From a virus: a stretch of DNA of 5,925 nucleotides. The stretch's first letter is position 1. Every line of letters starts with the position of its first letter. The stretch spans positions 1-5,925 of IMG/VR virus record IMGVR_UViG_3300045988_045637. One strand, 5' to 3'. The notes under the pieces were generated by a model. The model was not told the origin of the DNA and ran no database searches. It saw only the letters and a list, made by a program, of their open reading frames with translations. Position numbers and translations under genes: made by a program. Positions 1 through 5,925 of the stretch are shown piece after piece.

Positions 1-119
1 ATTTTTTTTGTTACATAACCCGCAACATATCTATATGTTTCTGGAACCGCTTGTGCTATCTGTACTTGACCCATTCCCCATAGGTCTGCTAACCATTTAC
101 TGGTATAGTATCCGTTGTG
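1..119. repeat. Terminal redundancy of a circular genome (copy 1). Identical to 5807-5925.
   Basis: Hand alignment: a + 8 t + gttacataacccgcaacatatc...tccgttgtg at 1-119 matches 5807-5925 base for base. This implies a 5,806-nt circular unit. Confidence 0.95.
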
Positions 120-662
120 GTGAATCTTGTATAGATTTTCTAGGTCTTTTGGTCTCCATCCGTATAGAATCATGTGATAATGTGGTCTCGCTGTTTGTTC
201 TCCGTACTCACCGGCCACAAAATAGCGTAATTTGCCCCTGTAAGCCTTTCTGAGACGTTTTAAGAACTTTTGAATATCTTCATACAGCAAAATTTGAACA
301 CTACTAGGGAGCTTCTCTCCCGGCTTCCATGTGTACTGTACCTTTCGCATGATTTCACCTGTTTTTACTATCATGCCCGGTACATGGTCATCATCATAAG
401 TTAGCGTGATAAACCAGACTTCTTCTTTTGGATAGTCTCGTGCTTCCAGTTCGATTCTTGTCGTCCAATCTTCTCGTTGTCTGATTCTGCATCCAATACA
501 TTGCCCGCATGGAATTAACATGACTTTCGGATTATACATCAAATCTTCATATTTTAGCTGTTTCCCGCTTAGCTGTGAAAAGCGGGCGAGTGAATATACC
601 CGCCCGCTCTGCTCTCTATCGCCCGGGTTGTACAGCCTTATTAACGGCTTGTAACAACTCAT
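1..662 (-). CDS. VP4: Replication initiation protein VP4 (HUH rolling-circle endonuclease), 5' portion. It runs off the window start and continues at 5806 downward. The full CDS is 5449-5806 joined to 1-662 (1,020 nt, 339 aa).
   Basis: Manual translation from the ATG at 662-660: MSCYKPLIRLYNPGDRE...PCGQCIGCR...FITLTYD (RCR motif I, 396-413)...RPHYHMILYG (HUH motif II, 174-182)...YVAGYVTKK (two-tyrosine motif III, 6-29). The start codon overlaps the VP2 stop (ATGA, 659-662). AGGTGA lies about 9 nt upstream. Confidence 0.92.
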   Translation of the reverse strand, partial: MSCYKPLIRLYNPGDREQSGRVYSLARFSQLSGKQLKYEDLMYNPKVMLIPCGQCIGCRIRQREDWTTRIELEARDYPKEEVWFITLTYDDDHVPGMIVKTGEIMRKVQYTWKPGEKLPSSVQILLYEDIQKFLKRLRKAYRGKLRYFVAGEYGEQTARPHYHMILYGWRPKDLENLYKIHHNGYYTSKWLADLWGMGQVQIAQAVPETYRYVAGYVTKK

Positions 663-1531
663 TTTAGATAATCACCTGGCTTTCTTTTTGCGCCGTAGTC
701 TCCTGTTTTATTCTGCATTGGGTTTTCTGGTTTGTGTCCTACTTTGCTACTGCCTTTTGTTTTATTTGTGATATCTCCAATTGTTTTGTTTGTTTCGTTA
801 TCGATATTTGTTAGTGCTTTCATTAGGCCGTAAGGACTTAAATGTGTTTCACTTAGCATTTGATTCCAGCTTTGCGAAGCGTTATACCAATCTGATTTAC
901 TCCAACTTGTGCTGCTGTACGAGTTTGGAACAAATCCGTTGCTTCTGCTGACTCCTAGTGCGCTGCTGCTTGCTAGTCCCATGCTTGCTCCGCTGATTGT
1001 TCCTGCAGACCCTCCAGGTGTGCTTGCTCCACCGTTTGCAAATGCTAGAATTGGGTTTATACCTGCCTTTTTCATGTCCTCAACCGCTCTTTGATATGAT
1101 GTGTTGCTCATACGCTCTTGAAACTGTCTGTTTGCTAGTGCTTCGGCGCTGTTGTAATTCATTGCGGTTGTGTTTTCGATGTGGTTATATACGCCTTGCA
1201 TTATGGCTTGCATGGTGTTGTATCCCATCTGCTGAAGCATGCTTTTTTGGTTGTATTTTTGCTGTGCTATGCCCTCTGCGCTTTGATATCCATACGCTTG
1301 CTGTAAATATTTTGCGATTTGTTCGTCATTCGTACCGGATTGGCTCCCGCTTACGGATGCTCCACCGCCTTGGCTTACACTTCCTCCGCTGCTTTGTCCT
1401 GTTCCTTCGTTTCCCCAACCGCCAAAAGCGCCTGTAACGTTTTTTACTGCGCCTGTTATGCTTCCTATGCTTGTTGCGACATTGCCAAGTATGTTTACTC
1501 CTCTTAAAATTGCTCCCCAAGGAATTGCCAT
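659..1531 (-). CDS. VP2: DNA pilot / minor capsid protein VP2
   Basis: 290-aa ORF directly downstream of VP1. It has a hydrophobic Gly/Ser-rich N-terminus and the segment NTSYQRAVEDMKKAGINPILAF, which matches the conserved core I recall from microvirus pilot proteins. Its stop overlaps the Rep start. Confidence 0.85.
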   Translation of the reverse strand: MAIPWGAILRGVNILGNVATSIGSITGAVKNVTGAFGGWGNEGTGQSSGGSVSQGGGASVSGSQSGTNDEQIAKYLQQAYGYQSAEGIAQQKYNQKSMLQQMGYNTMQAIMQGVYNHIENTTAMNYNSAEALANRQFQERMSNTSYQRAVEDMKKAGINPILAFANGGASTPGGSAGTISGASMGLASSSALGVSRSNGFVPNSYSSTSWSKSDWYNASQSWNQMLSETHLSPYGLMKALTNIDNETNKTIGDITNKTKGSSKVGHKPENPMQNKTGDYGAKRKPGDYLK

Positions 1532-1539
1532 TTTAAAAT

Positions 1540-1560
1540 AGCCGGGTTTTTGGCCCGGCT
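1540..1560 (-). promoter_or_regulatory. Intercistronic hairpin between VP1 and VP2. Possibly a leaky terminator and/or a structure that bridges the SD and the start codon.
   Basis: Minus strand reads TAA-AGAAAGGAGGA-AGCCGGG-CCAAAAA-CCCGGCT-ATTTTAAA-ATG. The stem is 7 bp (6 G:C) with a 7-nt loop, followed by a short T run. Confidence 0.6.
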
Positions 1561-1571
1561 TCCTCCTTTCT

Positions 1572-3281
1572 TTACATTTTTTCCAGACCCGGCACGCTAT
1601 ACAGCGGCATACAGCGTGTTGTATTGTTCATTACTCGAATTGCTCCAAAAAATTGTGGCTCGCTCTGAACAATCAGTGTTCTTGCAATTTCTGTTTTGCC
1701 CTCGTTCATCCATTCTTGACTGAGTGTCGGTACCTTGTCGTAGTTGTCCGCATAGTGCCAGAAGTCCAGCGTTCCTTGTGCGTTACTCCGCATTTTGCCG
1801 CTTACTCTGTTCGGCTTCATGCGATAGTCGGCCCAGGCTTCTTGATAACCGAAGGTTTCATCATCTGTGCTCGTGCCAGTAAACATGATTTCCTTCTTCT
1901 TTACAGGCTGTTCGCCTAGATTTGCGAACTGCGGGAAGTAGTAGTCCAGTCTGTCTGAGCGGCTCCAGAACCTTTCTAAGCCCTGCTGGTAACTATGGTC
2001 GTGGCGTACACACATGACACCGATAACAAAGCCGTGCTCTTCAAAGCTCTTTGTAAAGGAACTTTCATTGATAGGTGTTACTGACATTGCACCTGTTTCA
2101 CCAATAGGTGTGTCGTTTTCGGTCTGCTGTCCGCTGGTCTGCACGATCTGATTAACATTCACGTGATAGCGTCCGCCACCTAGATACTCAGGCACCTGAA
2201 CCGTTTTGTCACTGATGCTTACGCCAAAAATTGCCCTTACCTGCTCACGGTATCGACTGCCGCCACGTGCCAGTGCTTCATAGTAGTGCTGAACTGCAAA
2301 AGCCTGTCGGAGTTGGTTGATGGTTGCCGCTTCGATTTTTGACAGGTCTGCGCCCAAGTATACTGCACTGCTTTCAGTGAGGCTATCATTTCCTTCGTTT
2401 ACGCCCAGTTTTACCGGGTTTCCTTCGCCTCCTGCTCCACCTACTAGCTGGATTCCTGCTGTTGCACTGTCAATTCCATTGAGGTAGTTTACTTCTGCAG
2501 ATTGGTTGATGTTTTTCAGTACTGTATCGCTGTATGGTCTTACAGGCGCATTCCCTGTCAGTCCGATTGTCACTTCCGGCCCTCGCTGAGGATACGGCAG
2601 ACACGATGAGAAATAATCGTGAAATTTGCTCACCGGTAGACAACGTGCGCCACTTACTGCATCTCTCAGAATCCCTTCTTCGTCACTGTCTTCGTTTAAA
2701 TCCGTATACTGAATCAGTGTTTCGTCTGTAAAGTTCGTCGCCGGATTTCCTACGTTTTGGTCTCTGAAAAATTCGTTCCAGATTTTCACATATGCCCGGA
2801 CTGGCAGTGCGTTTATGTACGTTATTCCGCTTCCTTCTTTTTCGTTGATTTTTGTCGGCACTCCCATGTAGTCCAGAATGCTTCCTTCTTTTGGCCCTTT
2901 CAGGTTTTCTTTTCCGTTTGTCTCTGCGTTTGATGCGATTTTGATTTTTGGCACTTCGTATGTTTTTGTTGGCATCCACGGTGCATCGTCTGCTTCTCCC
3001 ATGAAACGCTTGAAGTTGTCCCATAGAATTCTGTTAGGACAGTAGAAGTAATAAAAATCGATGTATGCATCGTCCATAACCGGAAATTTCGGTGTGCTCA
3101 TTCGGATGATCGCCGCGGTATTTACGCTGAAAGTATCGCCGGGTAATACTTCGTCAACGTAAAACGGGATGAGTTTTCCCGAGTCAAACGTTGTGAGAAT
3201 GTTCTGGTCTCTTTTGAATCGCGTTCGACTTACGTGCGTTTGCGGTACATTGTTGAAGTGCCTCTCGTTATTTCTGTTCAT
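1572..3281 (-). CDS. VP1: Major capsid protein VP1 (phiX174 F-like jelly-roll capsid protein)
   Basis: 569-aa ORF, the largest in the genome. The N-terminus ...RTRFKRDQNILTTFDSGKLIPFYVDEVLPGDTF...MSTPKFPVMDDAYIDFYYFYCPNRILWDNFKRFMGE matches the conserved gokushovirus VP1 pattern. Strong SD: AAGGAGGAAAGCA-ATG. Confidence 0.95.
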   Translation of the reverse strand: MNRNNERHFNNVPQTHVSRTRFKRDQNILTTFDSGKLIPFYVDEVLPGDTFSVNTAAIIRMSTPKFPVMDDAYIDFYYFYCPNRILWDNFKRFMGEADDAPWMPTKTYEVPKIKIASNAETNGKENLKGPKEGSILDYMGVPTKINEKEGSGITYINALPVRAYVKIWNEFFRDQNVGNPATNFTDETLIQYTDLNEDSDEEGILRDAVSGARCLPVSKFHDYFSSCLPYPQRGPEVTIGLTGNAPVRPYSDTVLKNINQSAEVNYLNGIDSATAGIQLVGGAGGEGNPVKLGVNEGNDSLTESSAVYLGADLSKIEAATINQLRQAFAVQHYYEALARGGSRYREQVRAIFGVSISDKTVQVPEYLGGGRYHVNVNQIVQTSGQQTENDTPIGETGAMSVTPINESSFTKSFEEHGFVIGVMCVRHDHSYQQGLERFWSRSDRLDYYFPQFANLGEQPVKKKEIMFTGTSTDDETFGYQEAWADYRMKPNRVSGKMRSNAQGTLDFWHYADNYDKVPTLSQEWMNEGKTEIARTLIVQSEPQFFGAIRVMNNTTRCMPLYSVPGLEKM

Positions 3282-3663
3282 TGCTTTCCTCCTTTTCTAC
3301 AGATACTTCTGCAACTTTTTTCTGATTTCGTTGGATTTCCATTGCCGCGGCTTGTGCTGTTGCTATCATGGCGTGATACTCGTGAATGTTTGTCGGCCAT
3401 TCCGTGATATCGATGATTTCATCTGTTTTTGCGCTGTCTGCCAGACTTTTGGCAAACTCAGGGTCAAAACTCGCTTTGCGGACAATGTTTTTGATGTCGC
3501 ACTCGTCTGCATAGCTTTCAATTTCAGCTTGAATGTCGATTGGTTCGGTTTCAATCAGCTTTTTTTCGCCTTTTTCGTCCTTGCCCCAGACGTACTGCTT
3601 GCGTAGTTTTTCGCCCGGATTTGAAAAGAAGGGCTTTCGCCCTTCCTCGTATCGTTTATTCAT
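3268..3663 (-). CDS. Putative internal scaffolding protein (VP3-like), 131 aa. This is the shortened version of track ORF 3268-3816.
   Basis: ATG at 3663 is preceded by GGGAGGG. It overlaps the upstream ORF's stop by 8 nt and the VP1 start by 14 nt. The protein is acidic and contains ADECDIKNIVRK, resembling the ..ECDIN.I..K motif I recall from gokushovirus VP3 scaffolds. The family assignment is from memory. Confidence 0.6.
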   Translation of the reverse strand: MNKRYEEGRKPFFSNPGEKLRKQYVWGKDEKGEKKLIETEPIDIQAEIESYADECDIKNIVRKASFDPEFAKSLADSAKTDEIIDITEWPTNIHEYHAMIATAQAAAMEIQRNQKKVAEVSVEKEESNEQK

Positions 3664-3898
3664 TCGGCTTGCCCTCCCAGACCTTATCCGGCTCGATGCT
3701 CTCAAATCGGCCGCTTTCATCGTCGAAGTTTGCGACGTGGTAGCCCTTGTAGTCCTCAGGCGACTGCCCAAGGAAGGTTTTTTCATCCTTTGCCATAATT
3801 GTGCACATCCGTGCAAACGTCTCGTTGCTCTTGCTTTCGCCGATGTAGCAGTAGCTTTTTGCTACGCTGTCGTAGATGCCATAGTATCCATGAATCAT
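3656..3898 (-). CDS. Small non-structural protein, gokushovirus VP5/ORF5-like
   Basis: 80-aa ORF with SD AAGGAGAAAAAAC-ATG. The pattern YDSVAKSY...FARM...SPEDYKGYHVANFDDESGRF resembles the YD.KA..Y / PEDY..(x)G.FDD.TG signature I recall from the small conserved gokushovirus protein encoded upstream of the structural genes. Confidence 0.6.
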   Translation of the reverse strand: MIHGYYGIYDSVAKSYCYIGESKSNETFARMCTIMAKDEKTFLGQSPEDYKGYHVANFDDESGRFESIEPDKVWEGKPNE

Positions 3899-3910
3899 GT
3901 TTTTTCTCCT

Positions 3911-3988
3911 TTACAGTCTGATGCCGCCCCGCATGGGTTTCTGGCTGAGGTTGATACTTTTCGTTTTTCGTGCCGTTACGTTGAACAT
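3911..3988 (-). CDS. Candidate 25-aa highly basic peptide (possible J/VP8-like DNA-packaging protein)
   Basis: Manual translation: MFNVTARKTKSINLSQKPMRGGIRL, with 6 K/R and no acidic residues. It fills an otherwise unexplained 97-nt gap. The ATG is 7 nt after the upstream TGA and its TAA lies immediately upstream of the next gene's SD. It has no SD of its own. Confidence 0.3.
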   Translation of the reverse strand: MFNVTARKTKSINLSQKPMRGGIRL

Positions 3989-3995
3989 ACGCTTG

Positions 3996-4241
3996 TCAGT
4001 GCGTGCCGGCATCCGCTGTCTGTGCTTCACTTGTGTACTCCCTTCTGATTAGCTCTAGCTCGATGTCGTTGGCCCATTTCTTCATAACCCAGATCCGGCT
4101 AATGATTTCTTCTGCATCTTTCAGTTCGGACACTTTCTTCATCATCTTGTATCCGGCTTCAATCTGCTTGTATAACCTTTCGGCTTCTAGCCTGAGTGTT
4201 TCTTCGGTCTGGTCTCTGACGTTCCATGTTTTAGTCAACAT
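3996..4241 (-). CDS. Hypothetical protein, 81 aa, predicted helical or coiled-coil
   Basis: ORF on the coding strand with charged, heptad-like composition (LRLEAERLYKQIEAGYKMMKKVSELKDAEEII). AAGGAGG lies upstream but 13 nt from the ATG. I recognised no motif. Confidence 0.55.
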   Translation of the reverse strand: MLTKTWNVRDQTEETLRLEAERLYKQIEAGYKMMKKVSELKDAEEIISRIWVMKKWANDIELELIRREYTSEAQTADAGTH

Positions 4242-4246
4242 TGTCT

Positions 4247-4351
4247 TTACTTTTCCTCCTTCAGAATGTGGTAAATCTCGTCCAGCTTTTCGAGGACGTT
4301 CTTAATTAGCTGGATTGCTTCCCTCAGGTCTTTGACCTTAATCAATGCCAT
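4247..4351 (-). CDS. Candidate 34-aa amphipathic helical peptide
   Basis: Manual translation: MALIKVKDLREAIQLIKNVLEKLDEIYHILKEEK. The ATG is 3 nt after the peptidase TAA with GGGGGTG upstream, and its TAA is 5 nt before the next ATG. It exactly fills the gap between 4241 and 4355. It is below the ORF-track size cutoff. Confidence 0.35.
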   Translation of the reverse strand: MALIKVKDLREAIQLIKNVLEKLDEIYHILKEEK

Positions 4352-4354
4352 GGG

Positions 4355-4738
4355 TTACACCCCCTTTCTGTATCGTTTTTCGCGCACATCAATGTGTGTG
4401 AAGTTTGTATATCTGACTATGCCGCCCTGTTCCATGATACTGTCCGCGTATTTTGCAACTTCTCTGCTGCTGTGTCCTTTCACTACGATGTCTGCTGCCA
4501 TTCCTTTGCAGTGGTAGCTGTTTGATGCTCCGTTTACTTTGCTGTTCCAGTTTGGTGTACGGTATCCGCTGCTGATAATGACCGGTGCGTTAAAGTGATT
4601 TCTGATCGTTTCTAAGATTGCGAGTAGCTCAGGTGACCATAAAAATTCTGTTGTTTTGTCTTTGCATCTAAACTCTTCTGCTTTGAAGTGTTGCGTTAGT
4701 CGGTCGTTGTTTGTTTGGTTTAAGATTGGTGTACTCAT
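4355..4738 (-). CDS. Zinc D-Ala-D-Ala-carboxypeptidase-type cell-wall peptidase (Peptidase M15, M15_3/M15A-like). Candidate lysin.
   Basis: 127-aa ORF with SD AAAGGTGATAAAAA-ATG. Motifs: FKAEEFRC, SGYRTPNWN, SYHCKGMAADI (H76, D83) and FTHIDV (H115). This is the H-x6-D...H zinc triad layout of the small phage/bacterial M15 peptidases. Confidence 0.8.
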   Translation of the reverse strand: MSTPILNQTNNDRLTQHFKAEEFRCKDKTTEFLWSPELLAILETIRNHFNAPVIISSGYRTPNWNSKVNGASNSYHCKGMAADIVVKGHSSREVAKYADSIMEQGGIVRYTNFTHIDVREKRYRKGV

Positions 4739-4793
4739 TTTTTATCACCTTTTAGCTCATAAAATTTATATGTTTCACGCTGGTCCCTTTTCG

Positions 4794-4973
4794 TCACATC
4801 CACATTATTTTGTTTTCTTTTTCTAGCTGGTGGATTCTTTGTCTTGACAGTTGGCAAGTCCTGTTATCCCAGCACCTCATCTTCTTGTTGTAAGTATAAG
4901 GGAACTTTATTCTGTTGTCAATTGGCGATTTGTACCATTTTACCTTTTTGTTTTCGGTGTATTCGTACATCAT
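4794..4973 (-). CDS. Hypothetical protein, 59 aa, first ORF after promoter P1. This is the shortened version of track ORF 4794-5027.
   Basis: ATGATG at 4973-4968 is preceded by AGAGAGGTAAGCAAT. The track's start at 5027 is a TTG that is actually part of the -35 box TTGACA. The protein is K/N/Y-rich with no recognised motif, and a second promoter lies inside the ORF. Confidence 0.45.
   Translation of the reverse strand: MMYEYTENKKVKWYKSPIDNRIKFPYTYNKKMRCWDNRTCQLSRQRIHQLEKENKIMWM
4893..4921 (-). promoter_or_regulatory. Promoter P2, sigma-70/sigma-A type, internal to the 59-aa ORF
   Basis: Minus strand: TTGACA (4921-4916), 17-nt spacer ACAGAATAAAGTTCCCT, then TATACT (4898-4893). It sits about 155 nt upstream of the peptidase start codon. 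Confidence 0.6.
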
Positions 4974-4998
4974 ATTGCTTACCTCTCTTTCTGACTCT

Positions 4999-5027
4999 AT
5001 TGTATCACATTTCTTTACGTTTGTCAA
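4999..5027 (-). promoter_or_regulatory. Promoter P1, sigma-70/sigma-A type with extended -10
   Basis: Minus strand: TTGACA (5027-5022), 17-nt spacer AACGTAAAGAAATGTGA, then TACAAT (5004-4999), with TG at the extended -10 position. An A/T-rich UP-like tract (GAAAAATTTT) lies just upstream, and an SD plus ATG about 20-30 nt downstream. Confidence 0.75.
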
Positions 5028-5053
5028 GTCCTCTGCAGAAAATTTTTCATTAG

Positions 5054-5104
5054 ATGGCCGCCGTTGCGCGCTACGCGGCGCAACTTCCAGCGAAGCGCGG
5101 CCGT
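5054..5104. other. GC-rich compound fold (predicted three-way junction)
   Basis: The outer stem pairs 5054-5061 with 5097-5104 (GGCCGC/GCGGCC core plus A:T and one G:T). Inner hairpin 1 is GTTGCGC (5063-5069) / GCGCAAC (5078-5084) with an 8-nt loop. The inner mini-hairpin is GCGAAGC (5090-5096). About 72% G+C by hand count, in an otherwise AT-rich spacer. Confidence 0.6.
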
Positions 5105-5140
5105 GACTTTCCCGCTCGATTCCGGACTGCTTCTATTGGG

Positions 5141-5243
5141 TTTTCAACATTTTCAACATAGTTTTCAACATTTCAACATTGTTAAACTTTAGCACAATAG
5201 AGTGTTTCAACAATTCAACAAGTTTTCAACAAATCTTTCAACA
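5141..5243 (+). repeat. Iteron array: 8 same-orientation copies of (T)TTCAACA in two clusters of four
   Basis: The TTCAACA core ends at 5149, 5158, 5170, 5178, 5212, 5220, 5231 and 5243. Four copies are the exact 9-mer TTTTCAACA (5141-5149, 5150-5158, 5162-5170, 5223-5231). Start-to-start spacing is 8-12 nt within clusters. The larger module AGTTTTCAACA...TTTCAACATTGTT occurs twice (5160-5183 and 5221-5248). Confidence 0.9.
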
Positions 5244-5288
5244 TTGTTTTTTGTTTATTTTTAACGCTCTAACGTTTTAAAATTATAG

Positions 5289-5305
5289 TTTTCAACTTTT
5301 CCACA
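5289..5305 (+). promoter_or_regulatory. Degenerate iteron TTTTCAACT overlapping by one base a DnaA-box-consensus 9-mer TTTTCCACA
   Basis: TTTTCCACA at 5297-5305 fits the relaxed DnaA box consensus TTWTNCACA at all 9 positions. TTTTCAACT is at 5289-5297. Both are in the same orientation as the iteron array. Confidence 0.5.
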
Positions 5306-5341
5306 TACCCTACTACTACGACTACAACAAGTTATATTATA

Positions 5342-5391
5342 ATACGTGCGCACGCGTGCGCGTGTAGTTTTCGCGTGCACGTGTGTGCGCG
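5342..5391. repeat. Two alternating purine-pyrimidine CG/TG tracts (25 nt and 20 nt) with nested palindromes
   Basis: Perfect R-Y alternation over 5342-5366 and 5372-5391, separated by GTTTT. Palindromes: CGTGCGCACG (5345-5354), GCGCACGCGTGCGC (5348-5361), CGTGCACG (5374-5381) and CACGTG (5378-5383). Confidence 0.85.
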
Positions 5392-5404
5392 ATTAGAATA
5401 ATAA

Positions 5405-5436
5405 AGCCCAGTACCTTACTTGATAGGTACTGGGCT
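5405..5436 (-). terminator. Rho-independent terminator downstream of Rep, marking the end of the single transcription unit
   Basis: Perfect 12-bp stem AGCCCAGTACCT / AGGTACTGGGCT with an 8-nt loop, 12 nt after the Rep TAA. On the minus strand it is followed by TTTATTATTCT. Confidence 0.75.
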
Positions 5437-5448
5437 AGGTGACACCAA

Positions 5449-5925
5449 TTATAAAATACCACGCTTTTTCGTTTGTTTTTTGGTGACGCGTTCTTTTGTC
5501 TCTAGGACTGTTTTATAGTCCTGTTCTTCTAGCTGTAGACGCTTCTGCTCTATGGCGTTTTTCTGTCTGTTTTGTTTAATTCTCCACAGTCTTTGTGGGT
5601 TTTCTGCTTCCATCTGCTTTTCGTAGTATCTTGGAATTTGCGCCCGTTTTCCGTTGGTGCATTGAATGTAGCCTTGCCGCCAGATTTCTGCTTTGTGTTC
5701 TTGGTAGTAGTGGTCTCCAAGACCTGGTTTTAGGCTCATGCAAGCAAACGGTTTCGTTTGTCCCAATTCGTAGTACGCATTGGCTTTCTTTCCGTCTATC
5801 TCGTACATTTTTTTTGTTACATAACCCGCAACATATCTATATGTTTCTGGAACCGCTTGTGCTATCTGTACTTGACCCATTCCCCATAGGTCTGCTAACC
5901 ATTTACTGGTATAGTATCCGTTGTG
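5449..5925 (-). CDS. VP4: Replication initiation protein VP4, 3' portion. The 143-aa track ORF 5449-5880 is only the part downstream of internal Met197. 5807-5925 duplicates 1-119.
   Basis: Open frame continues upstream of 5880 to the window end and is in frame with 1-662. It contains the catalytic motif YRYVAGYVTKK (5812-5835) and a basic C-terminal tail. TAA stop at 5449-5451. Confidence 0.92.
   Translation of the reverse strand, partial: HNGYYTSKWLADLWGMGQVQIAQAVPETYRYVAGYVTKKMYEIDGKKANAYYELGQTKPFACMSLKPGLGDHYYQEHKAEIWRQGYIQCTNGKRAQIPRYYEKQMEAENPQRLWRIKQNRQKNAIEQKRLQLEEQDYKTVLETKERVTKKQTKKRGIL
5807..5925. repeat. Terminal redundancy of a circular genome (copy 2). Identical to 1-119.
   Basis: Same hand alignment as for 1-119. 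The reading frame of Rep is preserved across the junction: the ATG at 5880 corresponds to position 74, and 662-74=588 is divisible by 3. Confidence 0.95.

Follow-up and report, generated by a model that had tools for sequence, protein, structure and literature searches.

The IMG/VR virus record IMGVR_UViG_3300045988_045637 contains, at positions 5342-5391, two tracts in which purines and pyrimidines alternate without a break (R-Y tracts). These twin tracts are best explained as the arms of one GC-rich origin hairpin of single-stranded DNA (ssDNA), which may serve as an initiation signal for the complementary strand or as an accessory origin hairpin. The probability of this reading is put at roughly 0.45. 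The tracts fold into a hairpin that is specific for one strand, is conserved in pattern and position, keeps a fixed polarity relative to a neighboring hairpin of the nick-site type, and is restricted to a clade of microviruses in which the nick-type motif is inverted relative to the genes. In what follows, the window is the whole stretch of DNA that was analyzed, positions 1 to 5,925 of the record (5,925 nt), and the + strand is the strand as given.

The R-Y tracts

The window is a circular microvirus genome with a unit of 5806 nt. The cut point lies inside the Rep gene, and the terminal redundancy is exact over 119 nt (1-119 = 5807-5925). All recognizable genes are carried by the minus strand, so the + strand is antisense to the genes. 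The tracts and the parts of their fold are the following:

5342-5366, + strand: R-Y tract 1, ATACGTGCGCACGCGTGCGCGTGTA, 25 nt, perfect alternation; left hairpin arm, with the paired core at 5345-5364
5365-5371, + strand: T-rich loop TAGTTTT of the minimum-free-energy fold; the R-Y phase is broken at 5367-5371
5372-5391, + strand: R-Y tract 2, CGCGTGCACGTGTGTGCGCG, 20 nt, perfect alternation; right hairpin arm
5335-5403, + strand: AT-rich flanks TATTATAATA and ATTAGAATAATA, into which the stem may extend and which form inverted repeat I1 (19-nt arms, 74% complementary); the fold reaches into I1

A preliminary description of this DNA had reported perfect alternation over 25 and 20 nt, and a script confirmed it. 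The nested palindromes listed there are exact (CGTGCGCACG at 5345-5354, GCGCACGCGTGCGC at 5348-5361 and CGTGCACG at 5374-5381), and GCGCAC (5348-5353) and GTGCGC (5385-5390) are indeed reverse complements. Outside the two tracts, R-Y alternation extends over no more than 13 nt of the genome. When the 5806-nt unit was shuffled 1000 times with dinucleotides preserved, the maximum R-Y run ranged from 9 to 23 nt and fell short of 25 in every case, in agreement with the claim that such a block is unlikely to arise by chance. The tracts were also placed correctly, with a 12-bp hairpin (5405-5436) directly 3' of the Rep stop on one side and a module made up of an AT-rich stretch and TTTTCAACA repeats (5141-5341) on the other.

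Conservation and variation in relatives

Relatives were drawn from two sources. From GenBank, 19 loci were fetched out of about 50 gokushovirus records that match the noncoding region 5140-5450. From IMG/VR, 80 loci were collected through their Rep (at least 84% identity), and 73 of them had enough downstream sequence to judge. Twin (C/T)G tracts stand at the same position, between a conserved CTACAACAAGTTA-plus-AT-rich box and the hairpin just 3' of the Rep stop, in 18 of the 19 GenBank loci and in about 70 of the 73 judgeable IMG/VR loci. The IMG/VR exceptions are L062 and L097, which are without tracts, the odd contig L058, and the truncated L091 and L070. Only a small remnant is retained in L097, and in L018 (KT264798) the whole architecture is kept and the tracts are missing. 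The comparison across related genomes that had been proposed as a check therefore finds the tracts to be nonrandom, conserved and adjacent to the putative origin.

The tracts of these relatives comprise 63 distinct variants, with arms of 16-34 nt and spacers of 0-6 nt. Length changes and transitions (C/T and G/A) account for the differences among them, and the alternation is unbroken in all 63; what is conserved is the pattern and not the sequence. Almost all spacers break the R-Y phase and are T-rich (T 116, A 17, C 12 and G 8 over the 63 variants), and a single continuous tract occurs only in L009 and L011. The length polymorphism comes in units of 2 and 8 nt, with GCGCGCGT repeats in L009 and L050. 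In L001, L007 and L099 the two arms are exact tandem copies (z up to 5.7), which shows turnover by duplication or slippage in a few lineages, and deletion remnants are found in L091 and L097.

One hairpin, tuned for one strand

In the window, the + strand folds as DNA into a hairpin of -22.7 kcal/mol (z -5.35) with a 20-bp stem that includes five G·T pairs. The minus strand reaches only -12.5 kcal/mol (z -0.57). Folded as RNA, the + strand gives -41.3 kcal/mol (z -5.6). The minimum-free-energy fold of the + strand is a single hairpin between the tracts, closed over the T-rich spacer, in 63 of 63 variants, and the stem is 16-32 bp long in the relatives. Of the structures considered in the preliminary description, a hairpin in ssDNA is therefore the one that fits best.

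Because any two (C/T)G runs can pair if wobble pairs are allowed, fold energies were compared with a null in which bases were shuffled within the purine and within the pyrimidine positions of each tract, so that alternation and composition were both kept. Against this null, the mean z over the variants was -1.45 for the + strand (62 of 63 negative) and -0.02 for the minus strand, and the mean folding energy over the variants was -23.8 against -18.0 kcal/mol. The bases that oppose each other in the stems are CG in 914 cases, AT in 124, GT in 257 and AC in 17, where the null expectation is 67.5 for AC and 305 for GT. A·C therefore falls about fourfold short of expectation, and the shortfall of G·T is small. 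No A·C is present in 49 of the 63 variants, and GT exceeds AC in 61. Each G·T of the + strand is an A·C mismatch on the other strand, which indicates that the hairpin is tuned for the + strand of the window. Additionally, the lengths of the two arms covary (r = 0.75), and in an alignment of an 11-variant subclade all 220 of 220 cells pair when G·U is allowed, with two pairs changed on both sides.

The same counts bear on structures of the duplex. A cruciform in the double-stranded replicative form (RF), which had been suggested as well, calls for near-perfect two-fold symmetry with both strands matched. Instead, G·T occupies 5 of 20 positions in the window and 257 of about 1320 overall, so that about 19% of the stem positions are A·C mismatches on the other strand, and the cruciform is disfavored. 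A palindromic protein site in the duplex would penalize both kinds of imperfection equally, unlike the observed pattern. The counts are instead those of a structure that the + strand forms as a single-stranded nucleic acid. Over the whole intergenic region (5040-5447) there is little strand asymmetry (-66.2 against -61.2 kcal/mol); the fold asymmetry is local to the R-Y hairpin and its neighbor.

The neighboring nick-type hairpin

The R-Y hairpin lies 13 nt 5' of a second hairpin, which is followed by a short invariant box:

5405-5436, + strand: 12-bp hairpin with loop TACTTGAT, a perfect inverted repeat; by comparison with phiX174, candidate Rep nick between G5422 and A5423; on the minus strand, the hairpin resembles a terminator
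5437-5446, + strand: invariant AGGTGACACC box 3' of the nick-type hairpin; a single exact copy in the window, kept with the hairpin in distant microviruses

This hairpin had been described as the Rep terminator. It does look like a terminator on the minus strand, but it is more likely a hairpin for rolling-circle nicking. Its 8-mer ACTTGATA is the core of the annotated viral-strand origin of phiX174, AACTTG|ATAT. The motif has one exact copy in the window (5418-5425, + strand), and a pattern scan of IMG/VR for it, which also served as an independent sample of the clade, returned 105 contigs of microvirus size in which it is conserved. A conserved, single-copy ACTTG|ATA core, as expected of an origin of the phiX174 type, is therefore present in the sequence. 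Because of this resemblance and conservation, the hairpin at 5405-5436 is regarded as a candidate Rep nick site. Among 32 variants of the hairpin, the loop T(T)ACTTGATAG is invariant and the stem covaries, for example by the compensated transversions from CCCAG/CTGGG to CCAAG/CTTGG; the non-Watson-Crick pairs on the + strand are 15 G·T versus 4 A·C. An extra, unpaired copy of the nick-type motif, CTACTTGATAGACTGAATAGACTGATAC, lies between the R-Y tracts and the hairpin in many relatives (L046, L050, L091 and others).

The arrangement stem-ACTTGAT-stem-AGGTGA is also found on the coding strand of Chp2, of SpV4, where it is less clean, and of distant microviruses from Ciona and Apis. The SpV4 sequence, AACTTGATAAG, lies within an open reading frame (ORF) region and serves only as a further example on a coding strand. 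In genomes with the motif on the coding strand, called canonical here, the 60 nt immediately 5' of the motif are significantly structured (mean z -2.78; 32 of 55 below -2). An upstream hairpin is therefore general, with the R-Y hairpin as this clade's version of it.

Motif orientation and strand polarity

The orientation of the motif divides the 105 contigs. In 57 of them, with genomes of 4.2-5.4 kb, the genes lie on the motif strand. In the 43-47 genomes of the window clade (5.5-6.1 kb), all genes lie opposite to it. Of 43 genomes of the inverted clade, 37 have R-Y tracts no more than 220 nt 5' of the motif; the same is true of 3 of 57 canonical genomes, and in those three the R-Y run is part of the stem of the nick-type hairpin itself. 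The twin tracts are restricted to this gut gokushovirus clade and are essentially absent from other microviruses.

Base composition follows a similar division. At third codon positions of the coding strand, (T-A)/(T+A) averages +0.21 in genomes with the motif on the coding strand (46 of 57 positive) and -0.41 in the inverted clade (45 of 47 negative), so the excess of T follows the motif strand. The + strand of the window is T-rich (T 37%, A 18.5%), and both hairpins tolerate G·T on this strand. Third positions of VP1 in the window are 32% A and 19% T, that is, A-rich and T-poor on the coding strand. Whole-genome base composition was considered as a marker of polarity, but phiMH2K is a counterexample and composition was kept as soft support only. 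The third positions of phiMH2K are strongly G-poor (G 8%, C 37%), the mirror image of SpV4 and Chp2, and the polarity of its virion strand may be worth rechecking.

If the nick site is right, Rep would nick the antisense strand, and this strand would be displaced and packaged, since the nick-type hairpin lies opposite to the genes. Tentatively, then, the clade may consist of negative-sense microviruses, with the origin inverted, the antisense strand packaged, and the R-Y hairpin as its complementary-strand origin, which could adopt a second state as Z-DNA in the RF.

The repeat block and the flanking box

On the 5' side, the R-Y hairpin is preceded by two further elements:

5141-5305, + strand: nine TTTTCAACA-type 9-mer repeats in one orientation; 10 matches in the window, a number reached in 0 of 200 shuffles
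5310-5341, + strand: conserved CTACTACTACGACTACAACAAGTTA and AT-rich sequence adjoining tract 1; found in almost all relatives

The full order on the + strand, 5' to 3', is the repeat block, CTACAACAAGTTA with the AT-rich stretch, the R-Y hairpin, AATAA, the nick-type hairpin and AGGTGACACC. In L062, L105, L106 and L107, the repeat block and CTACAACAAGTTA jointly have the opposite orientation with respect to Rep and the nick-type hairpin. In the inverted-block genomes L105-L107, the tracts stay on the side of the hairpin and TG is kept on the motif strand. Based on these inversions, the repeats behave as orientation-free duplex sites and the R-Y hairpin as a strand-locked element. Single-strand origins work in one orientation only and on the displaced strand (PMC5703833). 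Here, strand specificity of the sequence and a fixed polarity relative to the nick-type hairpin are observed, and the + strand would be the displaced one.

Several smaller observations concern this module. The last repeat, TTTTCCACA, resembles a DnaA box. Among unpaired noncoding boxes of the clade, CTACTACTACGACTACAACAAGTTA (5310-5334) is the best conserved; its minus-strand reading, AACTTGTTGTAG, includes AACTTG, as the phiX174 origin does. Short R-Y stretches, TGCGCGCGTGCGCG and GCGCTGTGCGCG, border the far side of the repeat block in some relatives (left edge in L081 and L087; L062). Because (C/T)G runs are self-complementary, these stretches could act as inverted repeats that mediate inversion of the block.

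A possible role in replication

SSB-resistant hairpins, that is, hairpins that resist single-strand-binding protein (SSB), mark the initiation of the complementary strand in ssDNA phages. In the mechanism proposed here, Rep would nick the + strand in the ACTTG|ATA loop, and the nicked strand would be displaced and packaged. The R-Y hairpin, just 5' of the nick, would be exposed last in each rolling-circle round and would also be present in incoming virion DNA. As an SSB-resistant landmark, it may then show the host priming machinery where to begin the complementary strand, in the manner of a single-strand origin; alternatively, it may be an accessory hairpin used by Rep at initiation or termination. 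In this scheme, we infer the single-stranded state of the + strand, the priming role and the enzyme involved. Hairpins in the intergenic regions of microviruses have been proposed as complementary-strand signals before (PMC9865509). The strict alternation, which a hairpin of this kind does not need, could result from growth by slippage (in units of CG/TG or of GCGCGCGT, as in L009 and L050) combined with drift by transitions only, through G·T intermediates. Folding that tolerates shifts of register, or selection for Z-DNA in the RF, may be other sources of it.

A number of points weigh against this explanation. The 63 variants are related by descent, and counts over them are therefore not independent. 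A register slide of 2 nt still pairs 90-96% of cells, so that covariation in the classical sense is weak and the register loose. A hairpin requires no R-Y alternation, yet the alternation is perfect in every variant; in contrast, the neighboring hairpin shows compensated transversions. The element is dispensable, as near relatives without tracts (L018, L062, L097) demonstrate, and 6 of 43 clade genomes are without it. Priming motifs were not detected: the stem has no mimic of a -35/-10 promoter, and there is no RSB or CS-6 box of ssoA and no Rfam family.

The inference on polarity has difficulties of its own. Some canonical genomes reach a skew of -0.28, the inverted state is essentially confined to one clade, and phiMH2K (L101) shares the A-rich coding strand without the motif, having only a loose ACTTTGAT hairpin on the coding strand. 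A clear deamination signature did not emerge from singleton substitutions in 14 close genomes; C>T on the + strand was 0.085 vs 0.053 per site, and T>C was also raised. The model would also require a single-stranded + strand, contrary to the textbook positive polarity of the Microviridae.

Alternative explanations

The alternative that survives best is the one favored in the preliminary description, in which the tracts form Z-DNA as a torsional switch in supercoiled RF. Each tract would absorb about 4.4 turns and so modulate melting or extrusion of the adjacent origin hairpin. Part of this idea stands. The tracts belong to the proper sequence class, alternating runs of about 12 bp or more that are rich in CG and TG/CA steps, and the flanks are AT-rich with the nick-type hairpin 13 bp away. 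Z-DNA is the simplest account of the strict CG/TG alternation, which none of the 63 variants breaks in arms of 16-34 nt. With B-Z parameters after Peck and Wang and Ho et al., a rough two-state calculation for a 5.8-kb circle places the critical superhelical density of each tract at about -0.038 to -0.039. On this rough estimate, the B-Z transition of each tract would be physically possible, attainable in vitro and borderline in vivo, although the threshold lies above the usual unconstrained supercoiling in vivo. However, Z-DNA predicts no complementarity between the arms, no covariation of their lengths, no T-rich spacer that breaks the phase and no avoidance of A·C on one strand. One continuous tract would flip more easily than two that are out of phase, but single tracts are confined to L009 and L011, and relatives without tracts exist. 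As the main explanation of the tracts, Z-DNA is therefore unlikely.

Less likely still is a selfish palindromic CG/TG microsatellite, maintained by slippage, harmless, and incidentally a hotspot of recombination or inversion. Such an element would fit the 2-nt and 8-nt length steps (GCGCGCGT in L009 and L050), the exact tandem duplication of arms in L001, L007 and L099, the deletion remnants in L091 and L097, the R-Y-type stretches at the borders of the repeat block that is inverted in some relatives, and the several relatives without the element. It does not account for a position and polarity that are fixed in about 90% of a clade with coding genes too divergent for detection by megablast, nor for the fourfold depletion of A·C against composition-matched nulls. 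In addition, long GC hairpins are usually unstable and would be lost without selection.

A role of the tracts as a pair of duplex sites bound by Rep or by a host protein, comparable to the iterons of CRESS-DNA viruses or the bind locus of pMV158, is improbable. Two units of similar length do lie 23-29 bp apart beside the nick-type hairpin, some lineages have exact direct repeats, and the window itself contains direct repeat D3 (23 nt, 74% identity). Yet only about 10 of 63 variants have a direct identity clearly above the alternation-preserving null (mean z 0.96), and a pure direct repeat, significant in this minority only, was rejected as a description of the tracts. Tolerance of G·T and avoidance of A·C on one strand are left unexplained by recognition of a duplex, and the sequence drifts freely by transitions while the Rep proteins remain at least 84% identical.

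A role in RNA is the least probable of the alternatives: a G·U-containing stem-loop in a + strand transcript antisense to Rep, or a back-up terminator of the Rep mRNA, would agree with the RNA fold of the + strand given above, with a tolerance of G·U that is typical of RNA and with a weak promoter-like site on the + strand (5261-5289), but this site scores 9/12 with a -10 that by eye is not conserved in relatives, the + strand has no U-tract after the hairpin, the mRNA-sense hairpin carries A·C mismatches and sits downstream of the Rep terminator, and Rfam gave no match.

Other candidates were rejected as well. The sole ORF that overlaps the tracts is a spurious GTG ORF of 41 amino acids. The Rfam search returned only a chance match to mir-318 (E = 0.086). 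For an intrinsic terminator, the + strand hairpin is followed by ATTAGAATAA, which has no U-run, and the minus-strand hairpin is mismatched; a terminator scan of the minus strand flagged only the hairpin 5436-5405 and not the tracts. For a dif/XerCD site, the best match in the window to the dif of E. coli, the only dif tried, is 17/28 and lies away from the tracts. In gokushovirus prophages, this site is 28 bp long, with XerC and XerD arms that resemble the host dif (PMC7062461), and that paper places gokushovirus dif motifs in other contexts.

Other features of the genome

The closest GenBank records are gut gokushoviruses from human, pig and monkey, with 74-81% identity over parts of the genome. 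The genes and the remaining features are these:

minus strand: capsid F (PF02305)
minus strand: Rep (PF23343)
minus strand: Chp2-type scaffold
minus strand: ORF5
4355-4738, minus strand: Peptidase_M15 (E = 6e-25)
5027-4999, minus strand: near-consensus sigma-70 promoter upstream of the gene cluster (TTGACA, 17 nt, TG-n-TACAAT, extended -10; 11/12 matches)
5055-5110, + strand: GC-rich block that separates the promoter from the repeats; its nested inverted repeats are GTTGCGC...GCGCAAC and GGCCGC...GCGGCC

The Peptidase_M15 gene is also found in GenBank relatives, where it is annotated 'peptidase', and its product in this gokushovirus genome is probably a lysis enzyme. The promoter match suggests a host with promoters of the sigma-70 type; a Rep-based scan of bacterial genomes for the host found no relatives. 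In related genomes, other GC-rich hairpins occupy the position equivalent to 5055-5110.

Implications

Gokushovirinae are the dominant ssDNA phages of the mammalian gut. To our knowledge, neither their replication origin nor their complementary-strand signal has been defined experimentally. The papers searched describe no R-Y tracts, Z-DNA, defined origin, nick site or virion-strand polarity for gokushoviruses, in keeping with the statement of the preliminary description that it knew of no function described for such tracts in Microviridae. The present analysis provides a two-hairpin model of the origin (R-Y hairpin, ACTTG|ATA hairpin and AGGTGACACC box) for a clade of hundreds of metagenomic genomes, and the nick-type motif links this clade to Chp2, SpV4 and phiX174. 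The R-Y tracts are read as a variant of origin-associated ssDNA hairpins; antisense packaging in a whole gut clade would be the farther-reaching implication. The model predicts that virions of the clade contain the strand antisense to the genes. If this is true, it would overturn the assumption that all Microviridae are positive-sense, and it would affect strand-aware methods for virome libraries, analyses of mutation bias and the synthetic revival of uncultured gokushoviruses. If the prediction is false, a wobble pattern on a strand that is never single-stranded would need a new explanation.

Comparison with known systems

In f1/M13, the minus-strand origin hairpins B and C lie immediately 5' of the plus-strand nick hairpin D. 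The clade studied here likewise has a stable hairpin upstream of its Rep nick-type hairpin, and in f1 that hairpin is a priming signal of the packaged strand that works only in ssDNA and in one orientation. However, the f1 hairpins mimic a -35/-10 promoter for RNA polymerase, whereas the R-Y hairpin is a pure (C/T)G alternation without promoter-like hexamers. The phage family and the Rep also differ, and the function here is proposed by analogy.

The single-strand origins of Firmicutes rolling-circle plasmids (ssoA, ssoU, ssoT and ssoW) are similar in that they are strand- and orientation-specific folds, dispensable, and built of imperfect palindromes (PMC5703833). They improve lagging-strand synthesis and sit on the displaced strand (PMC5703833). 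Unlike ssoA, which spans about 130-160 nt and has RSB and CS-6 (TAGCGT) boxes, features described in part in PMC5703833, the hairpin here has about 50 nt of strict R-Y sequence and does not belong to that class. By inspection of the window, TAGCGT is not in the hairpin loop, and in some relatives TAGCG stands downstream of the tracts.

With phiX174 (CAACTTG|ATATTAATAAC...), the clade shares the 8-mer ACTTGATA and a homologous initiator of the HUH type. The PriA-type hairpin of phiX174 and the primase hairpins of G4, which are SSB-resistant markers of complementary-strand initiation, would resemble the R-Y hairpin in its proposed role. In contrast, phiX174 has its origin within gene A, on the coding strand and outside any hairpin loop, and its complementary-strand signal at another place in the genome; in the window, a hairpin loop on the strand antisense to the genes carries the motif, and the R-Y hairpin is adjacent.

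Plasmid inserts of d(CG)n and d(TG)n are of the same sequence class as the tracts, and the threshold of about -0.04 estimated for the tracts is comparable. The tracts differ from such Z-DNA inserts in having two complementary arms, a T-rich loop and a strand-specific avoidance of mismatches, features that Z-DNA does not call for. Finally, pT181, with the nick cruciform IR-II and the adjoining IR-III, offers another case of a GC-rich inverted repeat beside a nick hairpin, in a rolling-circle origin that depends on supercoiling. There, however, IR-III is a duplex site that confers Rep-binding specificity, while the arms of the R-Y hairpin carry 19% G·T/A·C positions and vary among viruses whose Rep proteins are nearly identical.

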